DNA of 64,000 bases from a bacterium (lineage in GTDB: Bacteria; Patescibacteriota; Minisyncoccia; Phycocordibacterales; UBA12088): positions 9,632 to 73,631 of the forward strand of contig QKEV01000007.1 in assembly GCA_003252295.1 (NCBI GenBank), given 5' to 3'. The notes beneath the pieces are model-generated. The model saw nothing but the letters and a program-made list of their open reading frames with translations. It had not been told where the DNA came from and did no database searches. Below are positions 7,732 through 58,052 of the stretch, in pieces; the stretch's first letter is position 1; each line of letters begins with the position of its first letter. The translations under genes and the position numbers were made by a program.

Positions 7732-7774
7732 AAGGTCTAATGGTTAGATCAACCATTAGACCTTTTATTTTTTC
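7732..7774 (+). terminator. Rho-independent terminator (14-bp perfect stem AAGGTCTAATGGTT / AACCATTAGACCTT plus a T9 tract)
   Basis: Read directly; it sits between the convergent 7242..7715 (+) gene and holB (-). Confidence 0.65.
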
Positions 7775-8457
7775 TAAATACTCACCGCTAAGTGCTCTAA
7801 CAGCATTTTGAGTGAGCTTGCCCTGTCTTGCAGGTAGTTGCGTACGAAAAGTACTTCTGACAGCACCCTTTTGTTTTTCTGTATTCCTTGCTTGTAGCAG
7901 TACGTTTCAAGAGTGTTGAGAAAAAGACGAGCCCCTTCCCTATCTTTGTTTTTGATGTACTGCTGTACAAGATCAAGTCGTTCCTTAATAGTTACTTGAA
8001 GAAATGTTTTAGCGTTGGCATATTCTTCTGTGTTTGCTTGTGTGTGCGTGTGGTAGGCAAGTCGTGAACGTACTGTAGGAAGGAGTGTATGCATGCTTGG
8101 CATTACGAGTACAAAATGTGTGCTCTGTGCAGGTTCTTCGAGGAGTTTTAAGAGTGCATTTTGTGCCTCACGCAAGATGCTGTTTGTAATGAGTACAAAT
8201 ACTTGCCGTTCACCAAGCGGTGCTTGGTACGCTCTCCGCTTTAGTGTACGAGCATCTTCGATAGTAAAGCGGTCTGTTTCAAGTATTGCCACATCAGGAT
8301 TACCTTCAATTGTCATATTGAAACAGTTGGTAAGGTGATCATGTGCGACGCTGTGTGCAATTGCCCGTTCTGCTTCAAGTATGTGGGCATGATGAAGGTA
8401 ATTGCTCTTGTTCATGACATACATTGTAGCATTTTTATGGTAAGAAATAGTTATCAC
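7774..8457 (-). CDS. holB: DNA polymerase III delta-prime subunit-like (clamp-loader AAA+ fold)
   Basis: LKLLEEP box and TVRSR (the SRC-type motif of clamp-loader subunits). The likely real start is MNKSNYL... Confidence 0.65.
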   Translation of the reverse strand: MITISYHKNATMYVMNKSNYLHHAHILEAERAIAHSVAHDHLTNCFNMTIEGNPDVAILETDRFTIEDARTLKRRAYQAPLGERQVFVLITNSILREAQNALLKLLEEPAQSTHFVLVMPSMHTLLPTVRSRLAYHTHTQANTEEYANAKTFLQVTIKERLDLVQQYIKNKDREGARLFLNTLETYCYKQGIQKNKRVLSEVLFVRNYLQDRASSLKMLLEHLAVSI

Positions 8458-8526
8458 CAGTTTCCACGCTTTCCACTTCCCTGTGTAAAGTTTTCACTTT
8501 GACGTTCGCTTGGTACAATAGTCTCC

Positions 8527-9936
8527 ATGTCAGGGTCACCTGAAAAATTGCGTGTTCCTCCACAGGCTGTAGAAGCTGAAAAAGCGCTCTTGGGCTCTAT
8601 TATGCTTCGACCAGACTGTATGTTTGATGTGGGTGATGTTGTTTCTCAGGATAGTTTCTATGTAGATAAGCATCGACATATCTACAAAGCGATGCGTGAT
8701 CTATTTTCAAAGAGTGAACCGATAGATGTACTCTCCGTTTCAGCACGACTCAAAGCAAACAAAGATCTTGATCGTGTTGGTGGGAGTGCCTACCTTACAG
8801 AACTCGTGAACACGGTGCCAGCAACAGCAAATGTGCATCACTATGCCGACTTGGTTCAAAAGGCTGCGACATTGCGTTCACTCATTAGTGCTGCTGATTT
8901 TATTGCGGAGTTAGGTTTTGATGAAGGTAATGATATTGAGGAAGTGCTTGATGCAGCTGAAAAAAGGATCTACGAAATAACAAACGCTCCTGGTTTGCAT
9001 AAGTTTGTTTCTATGCAGGAATCACTCGGTGAAGCATGGGACAGGATTGATCAGTTGCATAATTCTAAAGATGAAATGCGCGGTGTTCCAACCGGCTTCA
9101 AGGATCTCGATAGTCTACTTGCTGGACTTCAGAAATCTGACCTCATTATTCTTGCTGCACGACCTTCTTTTGGTAAGACCTCTCTTGCACTTGATATTGC
9201 ACGACAGAGTGCGGTGCAGCACAACACTCCAGTTGGTATCTTTTCTCTTGAAATGAGTAGTCAGCAGTTGGTTGATCGTATGCTCGCATCTGAAGCTCGT
9301 GTTGATGCATGGAAACTGCGTACCGGAAACCTCAAGACTGATGCCGAGTTTGAAAAGATACGTGAGGCAATCGATAAGTTACAAAATGCACCAATTTTCA
9401 TAGATGATAAACCAGCGAACACAGTACTCGGTATGCGTTCAACAGCACGGCGACTCAAACGAGAACACGGATTAGGTTTGATTATTATCGATTACCTTCA
9501 GATTATGGCACCATCTGGTAAGCATACGAGTGACTCCCTCGTACAACAGGTTACTGAGCTGTCACGATCACTCAAGTCACTTGCACGTGAGCTTGATGTT
9601 CCTGTGCTCTGTCTTTCACAGTTATCACGTGCAGTTGAGCAGCGACGTGGTCGTCCACGACTCTCTGATCTCCGAGACTCAGGTAGTATCGAGCAGGATG
9701 CTGATGTAGTGATGTTTATTCATCGCGAGGATAAAATGAGCGAAGATCCTTCAGCTTCCGAGAGACCAAATATTGCTGAAATACTTGTTGAGAAACACAG
9801 AAACGGTCCTGTTGGACGAGTTGAACTCTACTTTGATGCCAAAAAGACTACCTTCCTTTCAATTGAGAAGTCAGATTTCGGGGCATTTGAAGAGGAAAAG
9901 ACTGCAAATATTGCTGGCGGTGATGAAGACTGGTAA
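8527..9936 (+). CDS. dnaB: Replicative DNA helicase DnaB (no intein)
   Basis: N-terminal DnaB domain and RecA-like core with Walker A PSFGKTS and Walker B; 469 aa. Confidence 0.95.
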   Translation: MSGSPEKLRVPPQAVEAEKALLGSIMLRPDCMFDVGDVVSQDSFYVDKHRHIYKAMRDLFSKSEPIDVLSVSARLKANKDLDRVGGSAYLTELVNTVPATANVHHYADLVQKAATLRSLISAADFIAELGFDEGNDIEEVLDAAEKRIYEITNAPGLHKFVSMQESLGEAWDRIDQLHNSKDEMRGVPTGFKDLDSLLAGLQKSDLIILAARPSFGKTSLALDIARQSAVQHNTPVGIFSLEMSSQQLVDRMLASEARVDAWKLRTGNLKTDAEFEKIREAIDKLQNAPIFIDDKPANTVLGMRSTARRLKREHGLGLIIIDYLQIMAPSGKHTSDSLVQQVTELSRSLKSLARELDVPVLCLSQLSRAVEQRRGRPRLSDLRDSGSIEQDADVVMFIHREDKMSEDPSASERPNIAEILVEKHRNGPVGRVELYFDAKKTTFLSIEKSDFGAFEEEKTANIAGGDEDW

Positions 9937-9956
9937 AACCGTGTCTTAGGAGAAAG

Positions 9957-10571
9957 ATGAACGATATCCTCACAGAACTTACTGAGCTGTTACGAAAGTT
10001 GCCTGGTATTGGACCACGTCAGGCGCGTAGGCTCGCCCTCTGGCTTGTTCGCCAAGATAAGCAATGGGTGCAGGAGTTTGCTACTGCACTTACTGGTGCA
10101 CGTAGTTCGGTTTCAGTGTGTTCCTACTGTAAACGACTACATCCTGAAGGTGGTGCTCATATGCTCTGCTCGGTATGTAGGAGTGATGCACGCAATAGCC
10201 ACCTCCTCATGCTTGTTGAAAAGGATGTAGATCTAGAAAATATTGAAAAAACAGGTGCGTACAGTGGGAGGTATTTTGTGCTTGGTGGTACTACCAGTCC
10301 TCTTGATAAAGAACCAGACAGAAAGGTTCGGATTCGAGAATTGCAGCAACTCTTAACTGAAAAAGGTTCACCAGTTGAGGAAATCATTTTTGCGCTTTCT
10401 GCAACAACTGAGGGTGAGGATACCGTACTGTACCTTGAGGGTGCGCTCAAGAATGTAGTAAAGGATAACGATATTAAACTTACAAAGCTAGGACGTGGGC
10501 TCTCAACAGGTACTGAGCTTGAGTATGTAGACAGAGATACAATGAGTTACGCACTGAAGGGTCGTGCTTAA
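9957..10571 (+). CDS. recR: Recombination protein RecR
   Basis: HhH motif (LPGIGPRQARRLA), C4 zinc finger (CSYC...CSVC) and Toprim domain. Confidence 0.95.
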   Translation: MNDILTELTELLRKLPGIGPRQARRLALWLVRQDKQWVQEFATALTGARSSVSVCSYCKRLHPEGGAHMLCSVCRSDARNSHLLMLVEKDVDLENIEKTGAYSGRYFVLGGTTSPLDKEPDRKVRIRELQQLLTEKGSPVEEIIFALSATTEGEDTVLYLEGALKNVVKDNDIKLTKLGRGLSTGTELEYVDRDTMSYALKGRA

Positions 10572-37144: not shown

Positions 37145-37579
37145 GTGTATTCTGAATGTATGACATGTAAAGAAAAAGCAACAACGTATGTACAGTCGCA
37201 AAAGTCTTTACATTTATATCCTCGTGTGCAAGATGCTTTTGAAGAAGTGTTATGTTCATTGTCTGAAGCAGAACTTGATTGGGTTTGTGGCAATTTAGAA
37301 TTGATGGTTTTACACGAACAAGCAGTTGCACAAGTGATGCATTTTGATCCAAAAAAAGCCGCTTTTGCGGTGATGCAATTCACATTTTATGACGACATGC
37401 CTGGCGAGGTGTTGCGATGGGTAATAGCACATGAACTGGGGCATGCTATGCAAAAAAGAAATTGGAGAGAGGGTGATGGAACAGGTTTGGAAGAGGATGC
37501 AGATATTTGTGCTGAACAGTGGGGTTATCTGAAGACAAAAGAGATTGAAGAGTATCTACGTAAGAGGAGAGAAAATTAA
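37145..37579 (+). CDS. Putative HExxH zinc metallopeptidase (ImmA/IrrE- or SprT-like minimal domain)
   Basis: VIAHELGHAM motif in a 144-aa protein. Confidence 0.45.
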   Translation: MYSECMTCKEKATTYVQSQKSLHLYPRVQDAFEEVLCSLSEAELDWVCGNLELMVLHEQAVAQVMHFDPKKAAFAVMQFTFYDDMPGEVLRWVIAHELGHAMQKRNWREGDGTGLEEDADICAEQWGYLKTKEIEEYLRKRREN

Positions 37580-41447: not shown

Positions 41448-42347
41448 ATGTTACAGAAATATCGTTTTATTGTCTTTACCTTTTTTGTTTGTCTTGCGGT
41501 CATTGGTCTTGTGTATGCAAAGTACCATGGTATTGCAAAAGATGCAGAACAAGAGCAAGAAGCTGCGGCTGAACAAGCTGCACTTGAAGATTTAAGCTTT
41601 GTGCGTGGTATACAACCTGACGATCATATTCTTGGCAACCCCAAGGCACCTATTGTATTTTTTGTATACTCTGATTTTGGTTGTACGTACTGTAAGGATT
41701 ACCATAAAACAATGCGACTTTTGACGCAGGTGTATGGAGGTGATGGAAAAATGGCTTGGGTCTTTAGACATTTACCGTATGTGCAGCTTCATCCAGAAGC
41801 ACCAATGTATGCGCTCGCAAGCGAGTGTGTTGCTTCAGAACTTGGTAATGATGCGTTTTGGGCATACACCAATCTTCTATTTGAAAATGCTGACCCACTC
41901 AACCCACTTAGTGCAAGTACGCTCGTGGAGCTTGCAGCAAGTGTTGGTGTAAACAGACAAACATTTGTTACCTGTATGCGTTCAAATGAACTTATGGATG
42001 GTGTACAAGAGGATTTTGAGGAAGGTATGACTGCAGGTGCGCAAGGTACACCATATACTATCGTTGAAACACCAGATGGTCGCTTTGTGTATCAAGGTGC
42101 ACAACCGTACCGTGTTCTTGCGATAGCTCTACAAGATGCGGTTCGTGCCTATGGTGTTAATGAAATTATGTCACCAGACAAATCATCCTCTGTTGGTCGT
42201 GAATACATGAATGATTTTGATGCAATGTTCGCAAGTACTACAGCAAGTACTAGTTCTAGTACACCAACCCCAACTCCTACACCTGTGACAACCCCTGCAC
42301 CAAGCTCAGGTGCAGGTAGTATTCTTGATGGCATTATCACAGACTAG
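41448..42347 (+). CDS. DsbA-like thiol:disulfide oxidoreductase, membrane-anchored
   Basis: N-terminal TM, thioredoxin fold with CTYC active site, and a C-terminal Pro/Thr-rich linker. Confidence 0.75.
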   Translation: MLQKYRFIVFTFFVCLAVIGLVYAKYHGIAKDAEQEQEAAAEQAALEDLSFVRGIQPDDHILGNPKAPIVFFVYSDFGCTYCKDYHKTMRLLTQVYGGDGKMAWVFRHLPYVQLHPEAPMYALASECVASELGNDAFWAYTNLLFENADPLNPLSASTLVELAASVGVNRQTFVTCMRSNELMDGVQEDFEEGMTAGAQGTPYTIVETPDGRFVYQGAQPYRVLAIALQDAVRAYGVNEIMSPDKSSSVGREYMNDFDAMFASTTASTSSSTPTPTPTPVTTPAPSSGAGSILDGIITD

Positions 42348-45300
42348 TTCTTTTCACTAGTATCCATCATGTCTCGAAGTGCACATGCACTACACTCAGG
42401 ATCACCACAACGTTCATCCCAGAATGAAAGTGATGTTATTTTTTGAGCTATGTCACGTATGGTTGTTTTGAGCTCCTCAACCTCAACATTGGTGATCTCA
42501 AACACCTCTTTCTTGTAGTTACCACTTGCCATTGGTTCAAGAAAATCAAGAACAGCTTCCTTCATGCGATACTGTCCTTCATTGAACGTATCGAGAAGTA
42601 GTTTATAAAAAACAAGCTGACGTTTATAACCACCACTGCCTGGTGTGTTTTTTGCACTCTGTGTGGTACCCTCTATCTCATTGCGACTCCTAGGCTTACC
42701 TGTTTTGTAGTCGACAACTCGCACCTCGTGACAACGATCATCAAGACACATAAGGGTGTCAAACTTACCAGTGAGACGTATAGTATTATCAAGTAGAACC
42801 CCACGCACCAAGAGTTCATTTTTTGTTTTTTCTTCCCATGTGCCAGAGTACTTGCTGTGCCACCCAGTGAGTGACGCAGTCATTTCTTTTATGATCCGTT
42901 CAAGTGTTTGTTGGTCAATATCTGCCTCCTCCATGTACTTTGCAAAGGAATCAGTAAGGAACTGTGCGGGCGTATCAGGGTTTCTATTTCTCATGTTAAA
43001 GAAGTCTTCCAGTGCATGGTGTACAGCAGTACCTTTCTGTTGTTGTGCAGTTGGAACAAACTGTGTATGAAAAAAACTTTCATAGAACCATCTCCATGGA
43101 CAGGTTAAAAAGTTGTTGACTGCTGTTGCAGAAAGTCCTCGTTCTTCAAACGCACTCTTAACAAACTCAAGATACTTTTCACGACCATGTCTTCCTTGTC
43201 GTTCAACAAAGAGTGGTGGACGCTTTCCTGCATAGCCAAGTTCAATCCCCGTTTTGTAGGTTTTGCAGTCCTCTGTAATCTCTTCGATAAACTGTGTCGG
43301 AACACGATCACGACCATCAGGTGACCGTGCTGCGTAACTGATGAATACATCTTTGCGGGCGCGTGTTATTGCCACATAGAAGAGACGACGTTCATCATCA
43401 GTATCGTCGTCGATTAAAACAGTAGCACCGCTCCGGTATGGAAGTGTGAAGTATGACCCTTTCCGTTTGCCACCCCAGTGTCCGTCGTAGCTATTAATGA
43501 TATACACGTAGTCAAACTCAAGACCTTTTGCCTTATGTGCTGTCATGAGTCGTACAGAGTTTGGTACCTGACGTGACTTAGCTTCAAGGGTGAGGTTGTG
43601 CTCCTCCAGTATGCGCAGGAACACCTCATAGTCATCAAGTGTAAAGAATGGGTTTCGATAAACATGTGATTTCATTTCATCAAAAAGGCGCACCAGTTTA
43701 TCAAACTTCTCTGCATGGAATGATGAATTTTGTATGTGCTCAAGGAGACCTGACTCACGTACTACTGTTTCAAAGAGAATGAGGAAAGGTTCATTTTCAG
43801 CTATCGATTTCCAACGTTTTATTTTTTTTGCGAGCAACGCAATCGCTTCCGGTTTGGTGTACTCGCACATACCAGGTTTTGTAAGTACTTCAAAAACAGA
43901 AACCTTTTCCTTTTGTGCCGTTTTGAGTATGGTGAAGACATCTTGTACGTCGATACCGAGAAAGTGTATGAAGAGTAGCTTTGCAAGACAGTCGTCATCG
44001 GTGAGGTCAGCAATGCTTCGTAAGAGCATATTGAGCTTTCGAATGTCTGGATCATCAAGTACTCCATGACCAGATTCAATGAGAAATGGAATATTGAGGC
44101 GTTCAAAATAGTCAGCAATTGACTCAACGTCTCTATTGTTTCTGAATAGGACTGCTATTTCGTGCGCGGGAACCCCTTCTTGTATTTGTGCTTTTATTGA
44201 CTCTGCGAGATAGAGAAGCTCTTCATCGTCAGCGTCAAACGTGTATATTTTTGCAGAAATGTCCTGGTTTTTTTGAGGCTGTGTATAAGCAATGAGTGGT
44301 GCATCAATGGTGTCTTTGTTTTTCTTTATAAGTGAGTGTGCAGCATCAAGAACACCTTGATGGCTTCGGTAGTTTGTCTCAAGAGTGATTCTCGTGACAT
44401 TGGTGAACATCTTTTCAAAGTAGAGAAAGTTTGAAAGTGAAGCGCCTTGAAAACGAAAAATTGCCTGCTTTTCATCACCAACCACAAAGAGGTTTGGAGA
44501 ATCAAAGTAGGTTGCTAAAAGTTCTAGAATACGGTTTTGTGCACCATTGGTATCTTGATGTTCATCAACAAGAAAGTACTGGTACTCTTCTTGCAGTTCA
44601 CGGAGAAAGTCTTCATGAGTATCCATTGCCTCAATCAGCATGAGGAGTGAGTCGTCAAAATCATATCGTTTCCTTCGTGCAAGTTCATCTTGGTAGCGTC
44701 CAAAAAGGTAGCTGAGCTCTTCATTTTTTTCTATGGTACGTTGCTCCTTCTGACAGGCCCCTTTCATTTTTCCCTTATGTGCCCCTTTAGTATGGTAGAG
44801 GTCATCCCTGCTTTGAAAAGTAGTTCGTTCCTGTTCTACCCACTCAGCAAATGTCTTAGGTGTAAGTCCTTCGCGTTTGAGACTTGAGAGTGCACTGATT
44901 ATTTTAGGGACATTGTGATACGGTTCATTGATCGGTTTAAGTATTTCAAAGTGTCCACCGTCAATGATGCTACGAACAATATCAATACGTTCTACTTCAC
45001 TACAGTTACTTCTTCCTATGATCTGCTCAAAGCGTTCCGGATAGGTGTCGATGAGATGGTTAGCAAAGCTGTGAAAGGTAAAGATGGAAACTTGGTAACC
45101 ATCACTTCCTATTATTGACACGAGACGCTTGCGCATGTTTGCAGCAGCAGCGTTAGTAAAAGTGAGTGCTAGTATAGCATCAGCAGGAACATCACTGTTC
45201 TTGAGGATGTTTGCAATGCGTAATGTGAGAATTTGTGTTTTCCCTGTCCCTGGACCTGCAATAACCATGACAGGACCCTCAGTGGTATCTACTGCACGCT

Positions 45301-45358
45301 TTTGTTCACGGTTGAGCATGCTGTAGAGGCGATCAAACTCTTTTGAGGTATTCTGCAT
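42344..45358 (-). CDS. UvrD/PcrA-like SF1 helicase fused to a C-terminal PD-(D/E)xK RecB-family nuclease with Fe-S cysteines (AddA/Cas4-like)
   Basis: Helicase motifs (AGPGTGKT, DExQD-like VDEHQDTN) and a C-terminal nuclease motif VVDYKTGKP. Cys residues (CHEVRV…CGDPECSAC) match the Cas4/AddB Fe-S cluster pattern. Confidence 0.8.
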   Translation of the reverse strand: MQNTSKEFDRLYSMLNREQKRAVDTTEGPVMVIAGPGTGKTQILTLRIANILKNSDVPADAILALTFTNAAAANMRKRLVSIIGSDGYQVSIFTFHSFANHLIDTYPERFEQIIGRSNCSEVERIDIVRSIIDGGHFEILKPINEPYHNVPKIISALSSLKREGLTPKTFAEWVEQERTTFQSRDDLYHTKGAHKGKMKGACQKEQRTIEKNEELSYLFGRYQDELARRKRYDFDDSLLMLIEAMDTHEDFLRELQEEYQYFLVDEHQDTNGAQNRILELLATYFDSPNLFVVGDEKQAIFRFQGASLSNFLYFEKMFTNVTRITLETNYRSHQGVLDAAHSLIKKNKDTIDAPLIAYTQPQKNQDISAKIYTFDADDEELLYLAESIKAQIQEGVPAHEIAVLFRNNRDVESIADYFERLNIPFLIESGHGVLDDPDIRKLNMLLRSIADLTDDDCLAKLLFIHFLGIDVQDVFTILKTAQKEKVSVFEVLTKPGMCEYTKPEAIALLAKKIKRWKSIAENEPFLILFETVVRESGLLEHIQNSSFHAEKFDKLVRLFDEMKSHVYRNPFFTLDDYEVFLRILEEHNLTLEAKSRQVPNSVRLMTAHKAKGLEFDYVYIINSYDGHWGGKRKGSYFTLPYRSGATVLIDDDTDDERRLFYVAITRARKDVFISYAARSPDGRDRVPTQFIEEITEDCKTYKTGIELGYAGKRPPLFVERQGRHGREKYLEFVKSAFEERGLSATAVNNFLTCPWRWFYESFFHTQFVPTAQQQKGTAVHHALEDFFNMRNRNPDTPAQFLTDSFAKYMEEADIDQQTLERIIKEMTASLTGWHSKYSGTWEEKTKNELLVRGVLLDNTIRLTGKFDTLMCLDDRCHEVRVVDYKTGKPRSRNEIEGTTQSAKNTPGSGGYKRQLVFYKLLLDTFNEGQYRMKEAVLDFLEPMASGNYKKEVFEITNVEVEELKTTIRDIAQKITSLSFWDERCGDPECSACALRDMMDTSEKN

Positions 45359-45442: not shown

Positions 45443-46888
45443 CTAGTAGTTACGTAGGCAACGTGCCATTTCGTGATGCCGTATTTTCTCAATAGCTTTT
45501 GCTTCAATTTGTCGAATACGTTCACGGGTAACACCAAACTCACGACCGACCTCTTCAAGGGTATGGTAAATACCATCCTCCAGTCCGTGCCGAAGCACAA
45601 GAATCTTACGTTCTTTTGGAGATAGGAAGTCGAGTATTGTGTGTAGCTGTTCAGTGAGGATCTTATGTGCGGTATCCTGATCCGGACTATCCATCGTCTC
45701 ATCTTTAATGAAGTCACGGAGTACACTTCTGTCGTCGTCTGCGTCACCTACAGGACTTTCAAGCGAGATGGTATCCTGACTGATCTTTTCAATGAGGTAT
45801 ATCTTGTCTACCTCTATACCCATTTCGATAGCAACTTCCTCCTGCGACGGGTCACGACCAAGGTCTTGTGAAAGTCGTCTGAACACTTGCTTGTACTTAG
45901 TGATCGTTTCTACCATGTGCACTGGAATACGAATAGTTCTTGACTGATCAGCGAGTGCGCGTGTTATCGCCTGTCGTATCCACCAAGTGGCATAGGTAGA
46001 GAACTTGTACCCCTTTGTATAGTCAAACTTATCTACTGCTTTAAAGAGTCCGATATTACCCTCCTGAATAAGGTCAAGGAGTGTAAGATCAGGACTTCTA
46101 CCAATGTAGCGTTTTGCAATAGAAACAACGAGTCGCAGGTTTGATCGAGCAAGTAAGTTTCTTGCCTCTTCTTCACCTTCCATGACGCGTTTTGCCAATG
46201 CACGTTCCTCTTGTACGTTCAAAAGATGGTACTGTCCTATCTCACGAAGGTACATTTGTATGGAATCATGAGCAGAGTTTCGTGCATGTCGGTGGTATGT
46301 GTTCTTTTCACTTGGTGTGAGGATCTTTTCATCACTCAAAATGTTACCACCTTCAATAACATCAATGCTTGCTGCATTGAGCTTATCGTACAGGTCATCC
46401 AGTAAGGTAATGTCATCTTCAATTCGAGGAAACTCACGAAGTATCTCGTCATAGATAACATAACCACGCTCTCTTCCTTTTTGGAGGAGATTTTCAACCT
46501 TATTATGCTGTTCTTGTTGTTTAGGTGAAAGTTTTACTGTTGCTTTCTTTTTAGCAACAGCTTTCTTTGGAGCTGCTTTCTTTGGCACACTCTTTTTAGC
46601 GACTTGCTTTGCTTTAGCCGCTTTTTCCTTCACAACTTTTTTGAGCTGTTTACCGGTCAATTTCTTTTTTTTGACCGCCGCCACCTTTTTGGTTGCAGCT
46701 CGTCCCGCTTTAGCGGTAGTATTCTTTTTTTTCGCGACAGGCCTTTTGGTCTTTACTGTCGCCTTTGTTTTTGTAACCTTTTTAGCTGCCTGTGCAGCTT
46801 TTGTTTTGGTTACTGTTTTTTTTACAGACGCCTTTTTGGCGACCGTTTTTTTGGACGCTTTTTTCTTATGTAATGTTTTAGCAGCCAT
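45443..46888 (-). CDS. rpoD: RNA polymerase sigma-70 factor RpoD with a histone-H1-like Lys/Ala-rich N-terminal extension
   Basis: Regions 1.2-4.2 are conserved (…[21 protein letters not shown]…). About 125 N-terminal residues consist of AKK/TKK repeats. Confidence 0.9.
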
Positions 46889-46920: not shown

Positions 46921-48654
46921 TTACATATGTTCAAGTGTCTCCTTAAGTTTTGAAAGCCCTGTGACTTCTTTGATGAGTAATTCAGTTTCTTGTGTATCGT
47001 TGCGTGCTTCTGCTTCACGGAGTCTACGCATGAGGTCAGCAAGTTTTTCTACCATGGTCATTTTAGAAAGTTCTTTACTGAGTTCTGTGAGTCGACCAAG
47101 TGGTGACTCAGGTTGCTCACAAATGATTTCTGCTTGCATTGCGAGCGTTTCCTTTTCCTCAGTATATTTGGAAAGTAAGTCTGCATATGAAAGATGCATG
47201 GACTCTTCAAGTTTTGATACTTCATCAGTGGTGACATCTTTTTTTTCTAAGCCATCCTGCCAAAAAAGAATACCTGCTATTGTTTTTTCTAGATCTTTTT
47301 TTCTAGAAAAAGTGTTTTTTTGTACTTCAGGTCTCTGACCTTGTGTACCTCTTGGCACACCGTAGCTAGTGGCACTTTTTAGAGTACGTATATCGGTGTA
47401 CACCGCTTCTTCAGGTATACCTAGCATGTTTGCAACTCGTTGAACAAAGTGTGCCTGATCAGTGGCACTCTGTATAAGTGCCACGTACGGGTATACTAAG
47501 TTCTGTGCTTCAAGGAGTAACTTCCTGTTATCCCATGATGCTTCTCTTGACCTATCGATAAGTGTTGTGAGGTAAAAGTCTACTATATGCACTGCTCCTT
47601 TGATTGCTTCCTTCCATGCTGAAACGTCTTCAAGGATACAGTCAGCTGGATCTTTACCTAGGGGAACCTTTGCAACCTTGAGGTCGATACCTCGCTTGAG
47701 TGCTAAGATTGCCGCTCTTCCACTCGAAGCAATACCGGCAGGGTCAGCATCAAAGGCAGTTACAATTTTTTTTGTAAGTCGGTCTATAAGGGTAAGGTGT
47801 TGCTCCGTAAGTCCTGTGCCTGAGACAGCTACAGTGTTACCGTATCCAGCTTGATGACACATGACAATATCCATTTGTCCCTCAACAAGAATTGCAAAAT
47901 CATACTTTCGTATGTGCTGTTTTGCCTTATCGTAGCCATACAGTATCCTGCTTTTATCAAAAAGTTGTGTTTCAGGAGAGTTGAGGTACTTTGCATTGTT
48001 TTTATCCTCAGCGGCTTCACCAAATATTCTGCCACTAAATGCAACAACCCTACCTGTGCTGTCCATGATAGGAAATATGATGCGTGAGCGAAAACGGTCA
48101 TAGTACCTACCACTCTCACCTTTTTTTATGAGACCAGCACGTTCCATTTCTGTTTCTGTGTACTTCATTCTGGTAAGGTGCTCATGAAGTGCCTGCCAAA
48201 CTGCCGGAGCATAGCCAAGTCGAAAACTTCGCATGGTTGCCATTTCAAGACCACGTTTTTGTAGGTAATCTTGGGCAGGTTTTTCTTCACTAAGTTTTGT
48301 TTCAAAAAAGCGACATGCTTCTTCCGTTATTGCATAGAGACGGTCACGTGCATCACGTGATGCTTGATGTTCATGTTGCAACTGTACACCTGCTTTATCA
48401 GCAAGAATTTTCAAGGCGCCTTTAAAATCAACACCTTCCATTTTTTGTACAAAGGAAAATATGTCGCCACCCTGACTCGTAGAAAAGTCGTAGTACATTC
48501 CCTTATCTGGACTGACAAAGAAGCTTGGTGTTTTTTCATTAGTAAAAGGAGAAAGTCCTTTATAGTTTTTTCCTGCTTTTGTGAGTTTTGCGTACTGACC
48601 AACAACATCAACAATGTTGAGTTTATCTTTGATTTCCTGCACTTGGTCGCTCAT
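46921..48654 (-). CDS. dnaG: DNA primase DnaG (zinc-ribbon ligands substituted)
   Basis: Toprim/RNA-polymerase core motifs (EGQMD…, DADPAG) are present. The N-terminal zinc-binding domain is recognisable, but C-H-C-C is replaced by S-T-D-T (SPFTNEKTPSF…YYDFSTSQGG). Confidence 0.9.
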   Translation of the reverse strand: MSDQVQEIKDKLNIVDVVGQYAKLTKAGKNYKGLSPFTNEKTPSFFVSPDKGMYYDFSTSQGGDIFSFVQKMEGVDFKGALKILADKAGVQLQHEHQASRDARDRLYAITEEACRFFETKLSEEKPAQDYLQKRGLEMATMRSFRLGYAPAVWQALHEHLTRMKYTETEMERAGLIKKGESGRYYDRFRSRIIFPIMDSTGRVVAFSGRIFGEAAEDKNNAKYLNSPETQLFDKSRILYGYDKAKQHIRKYDFAILVEGQMDIVMCHQAGYGNTVAVSGTGLTEQHLTLIDRLTKKIVTAFDADPAGIASSGRAAILALKRGIDLKVAKVPLGKDPADCILEDVSAWKEAIKGAVHIVDFYLTTLIDRSREASWDNRKLLLEAQNLVYPYVALIQSATDQAHFVQRVANMLGIPEEAVYTDIRTLKSATSYGVPRGTQGQRPEVQKNTFSRKKDLEKTIAGILFWQDGLEKKDVTTDEVSKLEESMHLSYADLLSKYTEEKETLAMQAEIICEQPESPLGRLTELSKELSKMTMVEKLADLMRRLREAEARNDTQETELLIKEVTGLSKLKETLEHM

Positions 48655-48694
48655 AGGTAGCTCTATGGTACACGTGAGAAGGTGATTTCACAAC

Positions 48695-48723
48695 AAAAAA
48701 TGCACCTAGTAGGTGCATTTTTT
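48695..48723. terminator. Bidirectional intrinsic terminator (AAAAATGCACCT / AGGTGCATTTTT)
   Basis: Read directly; it sits between the dnaG start region and the upstream pilin-like gene. Confidence 0.6.
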
Positions 48724-48749
48724 GTAATAATTTGTAGTTTAGTAACGGT

Positions 48750-49121
48750 TTATATGTTAACCGATGGAATATCAATTGTTCCGCCAACCTCAACGCCTAC
48801 CATCTCTGCAAGAATATCTACTAATCCCCAAACAGAAACCATAACGAATAGTGCGAAAATACCCCAAACCATTTTACGTTTACCTTCAGCAGCTGCTTCT
48901 GAATCACCAGATGCAATGATAAATTGCACGAGACCCCAAATGAAAAAGAGTAAGCCAAGTGCGATTGCAAGTGGGATCAACTGGGTTATTAGTTCAGCGA
49001 TCGCTTGTACTCCATTATCTATGTACGATAAATCAGGGCTTTGTGCGTACGTTAGACTAAATGGAAAAATAGCCATTCCAGCAACGATAAGTAAGCTTTG
49101 TGTTATATTTTTCATATTCAT
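48750..49121 (-). CDS. VirB2/TrbC-like pilin-like small membrane protein (signal peptide plus two hydrophobic helices)
   Basis: Signal peptide ending …TYAQS, then two TM segments separated by a short charged loop, in 123 aa. This is the T4SS-pilin architecture; no other T4SS genes are in the window. Confidence 0.3.
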   Translation of the reverse strand: MNMKNITQSLLIVAGMAIFPFSLTYAQSPDLSYIDNGVQAIAELITQLIPLAIALGLLFFIWGLVQFIIASGDSEAAAEGKRKMVWGIFALFVMVSVWGLVDILAEMVGVEVGGTIDIPSVNI

Positions 49122-50359: not shown

Positions 50360-51613
50360 TTAACGATTTGCAGTTCTGAATGATCGTATTGATCCAAGTT
50401 TTATAACATCATTTCCTTCACTATCTTCATATTCAACACCAATTGCGTAGTAGTGTGTCGTATACAAATCTAGACCTTCAAGTGTGTACTCGTATTCATC
50501 GTACTTATCAAGGTCATCATCAAGTAATACCTTTTGAAGATCATCTCCTCTTTCACGAATGTCGTCGTATTGCTCTTCGTAACGGACATCGTTAAGTTCG
50601 TCTCGATCCTCTCCGTATATCAGGAAGGTAATACCGTTCCTGTAATCATTCATGTCAACATAACCTGATATGGTTGCATTGTGTACCTCAACATCAGTTG
50701 CACTTCCTGTTGTGACAATTGGCTTTTCATCTTCTATATCACGTCTGGTGGTAAAGTATTTTGTCACACCATAAGTCTTCTCTCCATAGTCATCTTCTGC
50801 AACAGCCCGGAAGTAGTACTTCTCTTCATCACGAAGTCCCTGAATGGTGATTTCGACATTTCTACCGTCATCTTCATGTTGTACAACAGTTCGTGTGTCT
50901 TTATCTAGATCATCTTCATCATCACCATACTCAAACCATACGTACGCCACATCTTCCTTGTTGAAGGATATGGTTGCACGAAGTGTTGCCCTATTTTCAT
51001 CAATATTTGTTGCTGAAGAGGTGACAACATCGATTACTGCATCACTCTTTGTAATATCAATGCCGGTAGTAAATGATTTTATTGATCCGTAGCTAATGTT
51101 GCCATCCTCATCAATTGCCGCTGCGCGATAGTAGTATTTTGTTTCAGAATCAAGATCCTGTGCTTTTATGTTAAAGTTACCGTTTCCATCAACTGACTTT
51201 TTGAGAACATTAAGTATAACCCGTTCTGAAAGGTCGTATTTGCTGGTACCGTAATCAAACCATGGTCGTGCTCGGTCAGAACGGTTAAAGTCAATATCAC
51301 CTACAAGTCGTACACTTGTTGCACCAACATCTGTAGCAGTACGTGTGTCTACCTCTACTCGATTACTTACTGAAGTATTTTCAATTACAGAAATGCTTCT
51401 ACTGGTGGTATCTTCATCGATACCGTGTGCAATACGCCATGCTTCCATGTACGCTTTCACGTAACGTACATACTCAGTGTACGTAGCAAAGGTCCTTCCG
51501 TTATAGGTATAGCTTGCTGAAGTTACTGCAGGTACAGCCATAGAACAGAATAGGACTGAAATGATTGCTATTTGTGATAAATATTTTTTCATAAAATGGT
51601 TAATCTTTGTCAT
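50360..51613 (-). CDS. Secreted protein with three fibronectin-III-like ~95-aa repeats
   Basis: Signal peptide and three repeats ending …YY(Y/F)RA(A/V)A.D..G…SFTT. Confidence 0.6.
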   Translation of the reverse strand: MTKINHFMKKYLSQIAIISVLFCSMAVPAVTSASYTYNGRTFATYTEYVRYVKAYMEAWRIAHGIDEDTTSRSISVIENTSVSNRVEVDTRTATDVGATSVRLVGDIDFNRSDRARPWFDYGTSKYDLSERVILNVLKKSVDGNGNFNIKAQDLDSETKYYYRAAAIDEDGNISYGSIKSFTTGIDITKSDAVIDVVTSSATNIDENRATLRATISFNKEDVAYVWFEYGDDEDDLDKDTRTVVQHEDDGRNVEITIQGLRDEEKYYFRAVAEDDYGEKTYGVTKYFTTRRDIEDEKPIVTTGSATDVEVHNATISGYVDMNDYRNGITFLIYGEDRDELNDVRYEEQYDDIRERGDDLQKVLLDDDLDKYDEYEYTLEGLDLYTTHYYAIGVEYEDSEGNDVIKLGSIRSFRTANR

Positions 51614-56220: not shown

Positions 56221-57120
56221 TTACTTACCAAGTAACGTTATCGTATTTTCAATACCTTTCAAATTCTTTTCCCACTCTAGTGTTTCGTGAGTAGCAAGCT
56301 CAACAGTGATTGCTGGTATGCCAATACTTGCAAGCCATCCTTCCGCATCACCAGTTACTGGATAGGCATCAAAAGTTGCAACTGACTTGTACCCTGCTGC
56401 AGTCGCATACGAGTTCATGAGGTCAATGGTGCCTGGGAGTATGCCGTTTTCACATTCTGAAGCATAAACAGCGTTTGATTGACTGTGCCAAAAGATAACA
56501 CCATCTGGTTGGTAGGTTTCCACGTATCCCTTAAGCGCAAGTGCTTCAGGTTCTGAAAACGCACTCGTACCAGCACTTACTTCGTTACCCCTCCAGGTAC
56601 TTTTCGGTTGCCACTTACAAGCAAAGTTCCTGTTGAGGTCAACATTGTTTGCATTGAAGCGCCCTGTTCCTATTGTTTGATCTTCATAGAGTACATCTGT
56701 TTGCGTAAACCTACCCTCTTTGTGCGTCACCATGTAGACACCATCTGGATTGAGTACCGGTATGATTGATACAGTCACGTTGTCTGGCAGTTCATTGATG
56801 TGTAATTCAAGGTAGTCCATGTAGTCGTACGCAAGCAGTGCGCTGTTCCACTCGTAACCACCGTGAATAGCTCCTACAAAGAGAATATGCCGTTCACCGG
56901 TACCATACTCGTATGCTGTAATAGGTCTTCCTTCTACTGACTGTCCAATCGTGGTGATACGAGTCTTTTCTAGTGCTGGTATTTCATCAACTACTACTGG
57001 TGTAAGCTCAACTGTTTCCGGGAGAGGTTTAGTCTTTAGAAACAATTGGAACATAGCAAATCCGAGAGCAATAATTACACCAATTGCTACCAATATATGT
57101 GCTTTTTTCAACCCCATCAT
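56221..57120 (-). CDS. M14-family zinc carboxypeptidase-like protein, membrane-anchored (paralogue 1)
   Basis: HGGYEWN (HxxE zinc motif), NPDG and DLNRNF; N-terminal TM. Confidence 0.8.
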   Translation of the reverse strand: MMGLKKAHILVAIGVIIALGFAMFQLFLKTKPLPETVELTPVVVDEIPALEKTRITTIGQSVEGRPITAYEYGTGERHILFVGAIHGGYEWNSALLAYDYMDYLELHINELPDNVTVSIIPVLNPDGVYMVTHKEGRFTQTDVLYEDQTIGTGRFNANNVDLNRNFACKWQPKSTWRGNEVSAGTSAFSEPEALALKGYVETYQPDGVIFWHSQSNAVYASECENGILPGTIDLMNSYATAAGYKSVATFDAYPVTGDAEGWLASIGIPAITVELATHETLEWEKNLKGIENTITLLGK

Positions 57121-58052
57121 TACTGCTGTGCGTAGAGGTTAATAAGTGCATCTACACCCGCCTTATTCTTTGACCATTCAGTATCGGTGTGGTTTGTGAG
57201 CAACACACTAATTGCAGGAGTGCCTTGTTTAGCGAGCCAGTTTGTTATGTCACCGGTTGTAACATAAAAGTCAAACTCGTCAAACGCAGGGTAACCGGAT
57301 GCATTTGCGTACGTGTTGAGTATTGTTTCTGTGCCTGAAAGTACGCCATTGTGACAGTTAGAAGCGTACACACCACCAGCTGAGCTGAAGTATGCCACCA
57401 CTGCTACTGGATCAGTGTTTACTATGTAGTCTGCAACAGCTTTTGCTTCCGGCTCTGAAAGGATAGCTGTACCTGCATCAACAGTTTTATCTTGCCAGAT
57501 ACCCGTACTCTGCCAATCACAGTCAAAGTTTCTATTTATATCAACATTGTCACCGTTAAAGCGTCCAGGTACTGTTGCTGCTGCATCAGTCGGAACATCA
57601 CTCTGTGAGAAACGTTCTGTAGTACCAACCACTTCCTTGAGACCATCTGGGTTGAGTACAGGAACAACTGTAACTTTTATGTTTTCAGGTATAACGTCAG
57701 GATTTGCATCAAGGTAATCCATGAGTTGGTATGAGAGAAGAATAGTGTTCCATTCATAACCACCATGCATGCCTCCAATGAAGAGTAATTCAGTGTCACC
57801 CGTGCCATAGTGGTACGCAGTTATCGGGTAGCCGTTAACAGAGTAACCGATGATGGTTGTTTTGCTCTGCACTGGTGCTGGATCGCCGACTGGTATCTCA
57901 ACTACAGGCTCAGGGTCACTGAGTGGCTGTGCACCACCCAAAAGTGTGCCATCATCCTGTTGGCTCACCGTGGCAGTGTCTTTAATAAAAAATAGGTAGT
58001 AGCCTCCTCCAATAGCTAAAAGTACTATGAGGGCAAATATAATTTTCTTCAT
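57120..58052 (-). CDS. M14-family zinc carboxypeptidase-like protein, membrane-anchored (paralogue 2)
   Basis: Same motifs (HGGYEWN, NPDG, DINRNF), about 45% identical to the downstream copy. Confidence 0.8.
   Translation of the reverse strand: MKKIIFALIVLLAIGGGYYLFFIKDTATVSQQDDGTLLGGAQPLSDPEPVVEIPVGDPAPVQSKTTIIGYSVNGYPITAYHYGTGDTELLFIGGMHGGYEWNTILLSYQLMDYLDANPDVIPENIKVTVVPVLNPDGLKEVVGTTERFSQSDVPTDAAATVPGRFNGDNVDINRNFDCDWQSTGIWQDKTVDAGTAILSEPEAKAVADYIVNTDPVAVVAYFSSAGGVYASNCHNGVLSGTETILNTYANASGYPAFDEFDFYVTTGDITNWLAKQGTPAISVLLTNHTDTEWSKNKAGVDALINLYAQQ

Follow-up and report, generated by a model that had tools for sequence, protein, structure and literature searches.

The bacterial DNA primase DnaG is regarded as defined by its Cys-His-Cys-Cys (CHC2) zinc site, which is taken to be nearly universal; the Pfam domain that contains the site is named after CHC2, and reviews call the set highly conserved (PMC6163395, PMC2978363). 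The DnaG encoded in the window, i.e. the whole stretch of 64,000 nucleotides analyzed here, raises the question of whether a primase can work when its ribbon has lost every zinc ligand, and of what could hold such a ribbon together. A first-pass annotation had identified the gene as dnaG and its N-terminal domain as a CHC2 zinc-ribbon homologue, and had proposed that the domain was kept but unable to coordinate zinc, from which a change in template recognition, or another factor compensating for the loss, was inferred. An alignment, a structure prediction and a survey of the lineage were suggested, and an upstream start restoring CHCC was named as the finding that would overturn the claim.

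The gene is located at 46921..48654 on the minus strand and encodes a protein of 577 aa, with MSDQVQEIKDKLNIVDVVGQYAKLTKAGKNYKGLSPFTNEKTPSFFVSPDKGMYYDFSTSQGGDIFSF as N-terminus, in which TIGR01391, Pfam, AF2 and Foldseek delimit the three domains of a bacterial DNA primase (ribbon, RNA polymerase/Toprim, and C-terminal helical). It matched the NCBIfam equivalog TIGR01391 (dnaG) at full length and above the curated cut-off (403.4 versus 283.6 bits, E 1e-120), residues 4-411 aligning with positions 6-414 of the 414 in the profile. Pfam matches to Zn_ribbon_DnaG, DNAG_N (PF08275, E 1.6e-43), Toprim_2 (E 1.6e-16) and Toprim_4 were also obtained, so that all DnaG domains were found and the identification of the gene stands. 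The AF2 model of the whole protein had a mean pLDDT of 90.2 and recovered Aquifex aeolicus DnaG (2AU3) in Foldseek with an E-value of 2e-30.

Alignment and structure comparison placed the RNA polymerase domain, Toprim included, at residues ~100-430 (47365..48357, minus strand). This domain superposed on those of S. aureus and B. subtilis with TM values of 0.86-0.90 and rmsd of 2.4-2.9 Å, and on those of E. coli, M. tuberculosis and P. aeruginosa with TM values of 0.79-0.86. Its acidic motifs E258-G-Q-M-D262, D302-A-D304 and D335-P-A-D338 (EGxxD, DxD and DPxD) are intact, as is K222-Y-L-N-S-P-E-T229, and in an alignment of 39 sequences E258, D262, D302, D304, D335, D338 and the 222-229 motif are all invariant columns. 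A linker predicted by AF2 to be disordered (residues 431-447) precedes the all-helical C-terminal domain (residues ~450-577; 46921..47307, minus strand), which was assigned from AF2, position and architecture and which presumably binds the DnaB helicase; the helices are predicted with confidence over residues 451-576. The sole sequence match to the DnaB_bind family (PF10410) was weak (17.8 bits versus a cut-off of 20.6, E 0.0042) and covered residues 382-416, inside the RNA polymerase domain and not the helical C-terminus. The expected partner, the replicative helicase gene dnaB, is present at 8527..9936 on the plus strand (Pfam DnaB_C, E 1.8e-101; DnaB, E 1e-33).

The surroundings of dnaG are those of a classical locus. 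The gene is immediately upstream of rpoD on the same strand (sigma-70; 45443..46888, minus strand; Pfam Sigma70 r1.1, r1.2, r2, r3 and r4), separated from it by 32 nucleotides, and this pair was also found in eight related loci. Of ten loci retrieved, none was identical to the window, and the closest, from Parcubacteria group bacterium GW2011_GWA2_43_11, showed 60% identity. No conserved gene beside dnaG other than the dnaG-rpoD pair was detected in the related loci. The rpoD product of the window carries a Lys/Ala-rich N-terminal extension of about 125 aa. On the 5′ side, a palindromic terminator hairpin (48693..48725), flanked by runs of A and of T, bounds the dnaG region and separates it from an upstream pilin-like gene. 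The protein is the normal replicative DnaG primase of this tiny, uncultured member of the Parcubacteria/Paceibacterota, and is very probably active.

The N-terminal domain (residues 1-93; 48376..48654, minus strand) was assigned as zinc-ribbon-like by PF01807, AF2 and superposition on 1D0Q, but is devoid of metal ligands. PF01807 (Zn_ribbon_DnaG, "CHC2 zinc finger") matched residues 3-95 over positions 4-96 of its 98 (100.9 bits, E 3.5e-29), which upholds the homology claimed in the first-pass annotation, the ribbon fold itself coming from the model. In phmmer searches, residues 1-371 aligned with 2AU3 from Aquifex aeolicus and residues 4-93 with 1D0Q, the zinc-binding domain of G. stearothermophilus, in both cases without gaps in the ribbon. 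A MAFFT alignment that included the E. coli DnaG N-terminus, with C, H, C and C at positions 40, 43, 61 and 64, placed on these positions S35 (codon TCT, 48550..48552), T38 (ACT, 48541..48543), D56 (GAC, 48487..48489, at the end of strand beta4) and T59 (ACG, 48478..48480), all on the minus strand and corresponding to ligand positions 1 to 4. Furthermore, S58 (TCT) stands where CFGC has Gly between ligands 3 and 4. Alignment with DnaG of model and related organisms thus gave all four ligand positions as replaced, from C, H, C, C to S, T, D, T, exactly as the initial reading of the sequence had it. Since residues 1-93 contain neither Cys nor His, a structural Zn(Cys3His) site is impossible; the earlier statement that the domain is retained was borne out.

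Other places for the missing site were also considered. The remaining Cys of the protein (114, 266, 339 and 512) are scattered over the domains and none is invariant, or nearly so, in relatives. A six-frame HMM search of the 64 kb window for a second zinc-ribbon domain, using a profile of the zinc-binding domain, retrieved only dnaG (E 8.8e-70; next E 0.67). A genome-wide avoidance of zinc or cysteine was rejected as well: RecR (9957..10571, plus strand), which served as internal control, has an intact Cys4 zinc finger in its sequence (C55-x-x-C58...C71-x-x-C74), and an M50 protease in the window keeps HEFGH. One of two M14 carboxypeptidase paralogues in the window has a match to H-x-x-E (HINE).

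The predicted structure of the ribbon was canonical, superposing on 1D0Q with an rmsd of 1.3 Å over 92 columns (TM 0.85, 46% identity) in a model from AlphaFold, which is unable to place metals and leans toward the fold of the family, and from an input alignment in which 38 of the 39 rows were zinc-less. Mean pLDDT per block was 79 over residues 1-10 and 88-93 over residues 11-90. The ribbon is the domain of lowest entropy in the protein: mean column entropies of ribbon, RNA polymerase domain and C-terminal domain were 0.77, 1.53 and 2.52 bits in the ligand-free class and 1.09, 2.02 and 2.80 bits in the CHCC class, so the ligand-free class is no looser than the CHCC one. Among 39 relatives (45-66% identical to the window protein), 25 of the 90 N-terminal residues were invariant.

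The replacement residues are themselves conserved. Ser occupies position 35 in 100% of the ligand-free class and in 98% of the class with a single Cys, and Asp occupies position 56 in 100% of the ligand-free class, where the one-Cys class still has Cys. Position 58 is Ser in 96-98% of zinc-less sequences versus Gly in 100% of CHCC sequences, and almost all of the zinc-less sequences have Ser or Thr at position 59. Position 38, the former His, drifts in zinc-less relatives (K/R/N/G/S/T/A). A pairing of K/R at this second ligand position with the Asp at the third was rejected: K/R was found in ~50% of the Asp class versus 19%, and the pairing is not general because Thr stands there in the window protein and Ser in the Saccharibacteria type. 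Outside the ligand columns and Gly58, the scaffold PF-x-x-EKTPSF-x-VSP...Y-x-F...GGD-x-F-x-F is essentially alike in CHCC and zinc-less proteins. By these counts and entropies, the zinc-less state has become fixed in a large share of the Paceibacteria/Parcubacteria, where purifying selection on it is strong.

The survey of the lineage showed how far this state extends. The nearest 120 homologues, all from Parcubacteria/Paceibacterota MAGs, comprised 117 proteins without the ligand set, one with CHCC and two truncated at the N-terminus; the 117 followed either S-x-D-S/T or, with a single Cys, S-x-C-S/T. When these 120 were pooled with the best 150 cluster representatives at 50% identity, the resulting 265 proteins included 98 with no ligand, 98 with only the third Cys and 67 with CHCC. 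Homologues of the ribbon domain number about 29,000 in all. DnaG of the Saccharibacteria type showed S-S/T-D-S in 120 of 120 sequences, and a neighbouring group of Patescibacteria (with Campbell-, Zambryski- and Pacebacteria names) had CHCC in 119 of 119. What had been treated as a peculiarity of one protein is lineage-wide instead, involving hundreds of clusters and at least two origins.

The evidence on origins came from neighbour-joining (NJ) trees, which are simple distance trees. In the one built on the RNA polymerase domain only, the Paceibacteria-like proteins of all three ligand states formed one clade in 98 of 100 bootstraps, and a grouping of all zinc-less proteins together appeared in 0 of 100. 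As the tree of the catalytic core splits the two zinc-less groups, the ligands were lost on at least two occasions, each time in favor of the same residues. A single origin was thus rejected on this smaller, bootstrapped tree, whose support extends to the separation of Saccharibacteria-type from Paceibacteria-type proteins only and not to the number or order of events within the latter, where the three ligand states are not cleanly nested. A larger NJ tree of 227 sequences, with interspersed ligand states and 31 parsimony changes, was judged too poorly resolved and was not used. Transfer of the ribbon domain between the two zinc-less groups was also discarded, there being no excess identity between them outside the ligand columns. 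On this phylogenetic evidence, the Saccharibacteria-type DnaG reached S-x-D-S independently. The loss in Paceibacteria/Parcubacteria probably passed through an intermediate with only the third Cys.

Loss of the ligands alone would be expected to do harm. Template-directed priming was abolished in zinc-ligand mutants of phage T7 primase and human PrimPol, according to references cited in PMC6163395 and to PMC4027207, and from these defects a plain ligand loss should do damage if nothing makes up for it. Since hundreds of relatives have fixed the change and it originated separately in Saccharibacteria, the protein has the look of a natural primase that works without zinc. We consider it likely that the window DnaG is an active primase whose ribbon is metal-free and is held in its fold by a polar network of Ser, Asp and Ser/Thr instead of zinc. 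The Zn(Cys3His) center would have been replaced by side chains unable to bind zinc, and Asp56 would tie the two former zinc knuckles together by hydrogen-bonding with Ser35, Ser58, Thr59 and backbone amides. The ribbon would keep its part in template binding and in the selection of initiation sites, acting on the RNA polymerase domain. The selective reason may have been zinc economy or the avoidance of oxidation-sensitive thiols.

A more far-reaching proposal, which we hold to be possible although doubtful, is that the Ser/Asp/Ser-Thr cluster is an adaptive, convergent solution for zinc-independent chromosome priming in two major lineages of Patescibacteria, in which Asp56 contacts the template or Mg2+ and initiation sites are recognized differently. 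D56 adjoins M53 and Y54, whose two positions on beta4 determine the trinucleotide specificity of the S. aureus and E. coli primases (PMC2978363). The pair at these positions is MY in 74 of 99 ligand-free sequences. By class, ligand-free proteins of the Paceibacteria type have MY, those of the Saccharibacteria type have IW, and CHCC relatives have TY or SY for the most part.

This difference between classes also speaks for a change of function, namely that the loss of zinc changed or relaxed template recognition, or made the ribbon purely regulatory or a site of protein interaction, with DnaB or another factor selecting the sites. We regard such a change as unlikely: normal CHCC primases, too, differ in the beta4 pair from class to class (PMC2978363), the remaining conserved positions of the ribbon are unchanged between CHCC and zinc-less proteins, and no conserved partner gene is found next to dnaG. 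The earlier inference, be it of a change in template recognition or of a factor that compensates, is not supported, given a scaffold shared with CHCC proteins and a beta4 pair that is occupied and conserved; as for compensation by another factor, only the dnaG-rpoD pair is conserved beside dnaG.

In place of a metal-free network, the ribbon could still be stabilized by a metal if the carboxylate of Asp56 and the hydroxyls of Ser35, Ser58 and Thr59 bound an abundant, hard cation such as Mg2+, Mn2+ or Ca2+. Asp and Ser/Thr are typical ligands of hard cations, primase already operates with Mg2+ or Mn2+, and the replacement is non-random, the same Asp plus Ser/Thr set having been fixed independently in two lineages. 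Yet a single carboxylate with hydroxyls makes a weak site, the second ligand position is unconstrained, and the one-Cys class (S-x-C-S/T, 98 sequences) lacks the carboxylate and conserves its ribbon equally well. A swap of metals is, in consequence of these points, quite improbable.

Decay of the primase in the manner of metazoan Twinkle, with priming lost and replication primed by another enzyme, appears very improbable. In animal Twinkle the loss of ribbon cysteines is reported to accompany the loss of primase activity (PMC3610141), and our view covers 64 kb of the genome, beyond which a second primase might be encoded; against this, the catalytic acidic residues are invariant, the ribbon is the most conserved domain, the dnaG-rpoD operon is canonical, no other primase-like ORF was found within the 64 kb window, and the state has become fixed in hundreds of lineages whose genomes are very small. 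With its invariant catalytic motifs, the window DnaG is not a member of the degenerate, Twinkle-type modules. Finally, we give practically no credence to an artefact, whether from faulty sequencing or assembly, a misplaced start codon or a pseudogene. Nothing was found in its favor, and it is already refuted by an uninterrupted 577-aa ORF that aligns end to end with relatives, by records of the identical protein from three sources, by the same substitutions in hundreds of independent assemblies, and by in-frame stops 11 codons before the ATG and further up; these stops rule out the upstream start restoring CHCC, and a missing N-terminal segment is further disfavored by profiles that already align from residue 1-4 and by the terminator hairpin upstream.

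A metal-free, active primase would provide a natural test of whether zinc in primase is a structural staple only or has a DNA-sensing role. If the zinc-less primases have ordinary activity, zinc would be shown to be dispensable for the ribbon fold of primase; if the convergent reading with Asp56 contacts is true, a natural system would be available that splits the structural from the proposed DNA-sensing role of zinc. The substitutions C→S, C→D, G→S and C→S/T offer a minimal recipe for a zinc-free version of a CHCC primase, and the ligand state is a sequence marker that separates large clades of Patescibacteria. The finding is relevant, too, to metal economy in ultra-small bacterial symbionts and to strategies for DnaG inhibitors aimed at the zinc site. 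No prior description of a zinc-less DnaG ribbon was found in a literature search, subscription-only papers aside.

Compared with canonical DnaG (E. coli, G. stearothermophilus, A. aeolicus; 1D0Q, 2AU3; PF01807 + PF08275 + Toprim), the window protein has the same three-domain architecture and shares the ribbon scaffold PF..EKTPSF.VSP...F...GGD.F.F, the catalytic motifs and the dnaG-rpoD operon, but it has Ser, Thr, Asp and Thr plus Ser where the canonical enzymes have Cys, His, Cys and Cys plus Gly. Loss of zinc-ribbon cysteines with function kept is reportedly known from the C-minus ribosomal protein paralogues described by Makarova and colleagues in 2001. Zinc-ribbon cysteines were lost repeatedly in such zinc-independent paralogues, which kept their function, and this is read as zinc sparing (PMC5912738). 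The C-minus forms of L31, L33, L36, S14 and S18 usually accompany a zinc-binding copy and are induced when zinc is limiting, whereas the window has only one dnaG, which is constitutively zinc-less, and its RecR keeps the zinc site. In E. coli topoisomerase I, domains D8 and D9 have lost the Cys and kept the ribbon fold, ssDNA binding being reported for the C-terminal domains collectively (PMC10969213). D8 and D9 resemble the ribbon described here in being small, with four strands, and in belonging to a DNA enzyme of the Toprim family; they are, however, extra repeats beside three intact zinc ribbons, and in the window DnaG the only ribbon is the zinc-less one. Metazoan Twinkle and the 56-kDa form of T7 gp4, both distantly similar to the window DnaG in Foldseek, carry a DnaG-type module whose zinc motif is lost or absent (PMC3610141). 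Template-directed priming has been lost in both and the catalytic residues of Twinkle have decayed, whereas the window DnaG keeps its catalytic residues as well as its ribbon scaffold.

The dnaG gene (46921-48654, minus strand) encodes a protein of 577 amino acids that qualifies as a genuine DnaG in all respects tested except the CHC2 ligand set after which the family is named. The NCBIfam dnaG equivalog TIGR01391 (model length 414 positions) matched residues 4-411 with an E-value of 1e-120, and Pfam recognized Zn_ribbon_DnaG (PF01807, residues 3-95, E 3.5e-29), DNAG_N (E 1.6e-43) and Toprim_2/4. In phmmer searches against the PDB, Aquifex aeolicus DnaG (2AU3) paired with residues 1-371 (E 1.2e-60) and the G. 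stearothermophilus zinc-binding domain (1D0Q) with residues 4-93 (E 2.7e-21), the ribbon being gap-free in both alignments. These alignments, together with a MAFFT alignment to the E. coli N-terminus (ligands C40, H43, C61 and C64), placed S35, T38, D56 and T59 (codons TCT, ACT, GAC and ACG) at the four zinc-ligand positions, with S58 in place of the glycine of the CFGC knuckle. Given these positions, and since inspection of residues 1-93 revealed neither cysteine nor histidine, the statement of the first-pass annotation that all four ligands are replaced is exact.

That the true zinc-binding domain lies elsewhere, for example behind an upstream start adding a CHCC segment, was ruled out. An in-frame stop lies 11 codons 5' of the dnaG ATG, with further stops beyond, and a palindromic hairpin terminator (48693-48725) follows the T4SS-pilin-like gene and precedes dnaG. 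Family profiles reach the protein from residues 1-4, and when all six frames of the window were searched with an HMM of 265 zinc-binding domains, dnaG was the only gene found (E 8.8e-70; next best match, E 0.67), with no second such domain. Comparison of related loci likewise revealed no small conserved neighbour gene beside dnaG able to supply a zinc module.

In order to survey the substitution, we classified homologues as CHCC (full ligand set), one-Cys (S-x-C-S/T, third cysteine kept) or ligand-free (S-x-D-S/T). Among the best 120 homologues (100-45% identity; the named ones from Parcubacteria, Paceibacterota or Patescibacteria MAGs), about 80 were ligand-free, about 37 one-Cys and a single 'Lloydbacteria' protein CHCC. 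Pooling these with the best 150 of 29,246 matches to residues 1-99, drawn from 1.84 billion 50%-identity cluster representatives, gave 265 proteins (98 ligand-free, 98 one-Cys, 67 CHCC). The one-Cys class (P0076-P0118 and others) keeps a lone conserved Cys3 in an otherwise ligand-free ribbon of Paceibacteria DnaG, which could be a vestige or redox-related. All 120 Saccharibacteria-type proteins (P0225, used as query, and P0266-P0384) read S-S/T-D-S, with no one-Cys or CHCC member and the hallmark motif IWHDFSS; complete genomes exist for this group, given that several of its members lie on contigs about 1.1 Mb in length. A neighbouring Patescibacteria group (Campbellbacteria, Zambryskibacteria and 'Pacebacteria' names) was CHCC in 119 of 119 proteins, none ligand-free or one-Cys. 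As read from these alignments, the ligand state is sharply uniform within clades, the pattern of a fixed evolutionary change. An artefact is excluded by the clade-wide recurrence of the same substitutions and by the presence of the identical protein in three sources (NCBI, JGI and Logan; 154-kb contig).

The ribbon is the least variable part of DnaG in the ligand-free class, where mean column entropy rises from 0.77 bits in the ribbon to 1.53 in the polymerase and 2.52 in the C-terminal domain (1.09, 2.02 and 2.80 in the CHCC class), and 25 of 90 N-terminal positions were invariant over 39 relatives (45-66% identity to the window protein). Outside the ligand positions and Gly58, the three classes share the consensus PF..EKTPSF.VSP...Y.F...GGD.F.F...EG.DF..AL..LA..AG. 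Fixation extends to the replacement residues (S35, 100%; D56, 100%; S58, 98%; S/T59); the former histidine position 38 drifts, being K, R, N, G, S, T or A. AlphaFold2, supplied with a 39-row alignment containing 38 zinc-less sequences, gave a model with a mean pLDDT of 90.2 (ribbon 88-93). In Foldseek superpositions, its N-terminal domain fitted 1D0Q to 1.3 A across 92 columns (TM 0.85) and its core fitted solved RNA polymerase domains (TM 0.79-0.90). Alignment and predicted fold thus bear out the first-pass annotation on ligand loss, found here to be lineage-wide, and on retention of the domain, for which a canonical ribbon fold is predicted here.

A neighbour-joining tree was built from the catalytic core alone (residues 100-430, ribbon left out; 48 representatives, 100 bootstraps). 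Bootstrap support for a single clade of Paceibacteria-like proteins, with every ligand state included, was 98 of 100, and a grouping of all zinc-less proteins was never recovered (0 of 100). Core identity of the query's group was 0.47 to its CHCC neighbours versus 0.32 to the Saccharibacteria type. Outside the ligand columns, ribbon identity was 0.58 between the two zinc-less groups versus 0.61-0.70 to the query's own neighbours, with no excess similarity between the former. On this sequence evidence the ligands were lost at least twice, each time ending in S-x-D-S with Gly58 replaced by serine. The separation of the Saccharibacteria and Paceibacteria types in the core tree speaks for convergence of the two losses on identical replacement residues. 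Inside the Paceibacteria-like clade, tree resolution is insufficient for ordering the losses; the large class keeping only Cys3 suggests a path from CHCC through S-x-C-S/T to S-x-D-S/T.

The organism, by its motifs, still uses zinc. RecR (9957-10571, plus strand) retains an intact Cys4 finger (CxxC...CxxC), so the ligand loss is specific to DnaG; an M50 protease keeps HEFGH, and the first of two tandem M14 zinc-carboxypeptidase paralogues (56221-58052, minus strand) has an H-x-x-E match (HINE at residue 107). The second may be an inactive copy because a regular-expression search found no H-x-x-E in it. Together with dnaB (8527-9936, plus strand) and a DNA polymerase III delta'-like gene (7774-8457, minus strand), recR forms a replication/repair cluster (7774-10571) about 37 kb from dnaG. 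Directly 5' of dnaG, the gene of a small T4SS-pilin-domain membrane protein (48750-49121, minus strand; PF18895, E 2.4e-10) is common only to the closest relatives (same position in loci L001-L003 and L010). On the other side, rpoD (sigma-70; 45443-46888, minus strand) starts 32 nt 3' of dnaG, a classical pair conserved in eight related loci (L001-L005, L007-L009). RpoD carries an N-terminal extension of about 125 residues before region 1.1, nearly all Lys, Ala, Thr and Val with histone-H1-like KKAxKK-type repeats, and over its full length, with the tail, shares 79-80% identity with its counterparts in three related loci of Parcubacteria (L001-L003). Immediately 3' of rpoD on the same strand, 42344-45358 encodes a 1004-residue protein that joins an AddA/PcrA-like UvrD helicase to a C-terminal PD-(D/E)XK nuclease and has a CxxC close to its C-terminus (residue 989). 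A secreted-looking protein of 417 residues (50360-51613, minus strand) has internal repeats of about 100 residues with recurring YYYRA.A.D..G...YG....F.T motifs and weak matches to purple acid phosphatase N-terminal/FN3-like domains. Between 34001 and 38000 the G+C content falls to 0.35 (about 0.42 elsewhere) and short ORFs (50-195 residues) are packed, possibly a foreign or fast-evolving island; 37145-37579, the one ORF scanned there, gave a sub-threshold Pfam match.

From sequence and model together, this DnaG is probably an active primase whose ribbon carries no metal. Its zinc-ribbon-like fold would stand without metal, a polar cluster taking over from the tetrahedral site that once tied the two knuckles together. 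Ligand atoms of a Cys3His site lie within about 4 A of one another, so Asp56 could plausibly accept hydrogen bonds from the hydroxyls of Ser35, Ser58 and Thr59 and from knuckle backbone amides. Selection may have favoured sparing zinc, or doing without oxidation-prone thiolates, in ultra-small, host-dependent cells. Replacement of zinc by a hard cation on the Asp/Ser/Thr set is possible but a weak reading, as the one-Cys class has no carboxylate. An altered template specificity or regulatory role of the ribbon is improbable; ligand loss by itself implies neither. The two beta4 residues directly before the third ligand govern trinucleotide specificity (E. coli F58/Y59, S. aureus I56/C57; Larson et al., PMC2978363); M53/Y54 correspond to them in this protein, and the MY pair recurs in 74 of 99 ligand-free sequences. 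Ligand loss with domain retention stands from the first-pass annotation, but not its corollary of altered template recognition or compensation by another factor, as the ribbon consensus, apart from the ligand positions and Gly58, equals that of CHCC proteins and no conserved neighbour gene beyond rpoD was found. The highly constrained ribbon and the invariant catalytic motifs of the polymerase domain (E258-G-Q-M-D262, D302-x-D304, D335-P-x-D338, KYLNSPET) contradict a primase that has died as in Twinkle.

According to reviews, the three cysteines and one histidine of the primase zinc site are highly conserved and what zinc does there is unsettled (PMC6163395, PMC2978363); no description of a zinc-ligand-free DnaG was found in the openly searchable full-text literature. 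As a gene, this dnaG is ordinary. What is surprising is a primase ribbon that is fully zinc-less, lineage-wide and convergent, and with it the old question of what zinc contributes to primases can be tested directly. Loss of zinc-ribbon cysteines is already known as a general phenomenon in other proteins: ribbons that stay folded and functional without their cysteines have a precedent in domains D8 and D9 of E. coli topoisomerase I, which retain the zinc ribbon fold with the cysteines lost (PMC10969213), and a second in zinc-independent ribosomal protein paralogues (PMC5912738).
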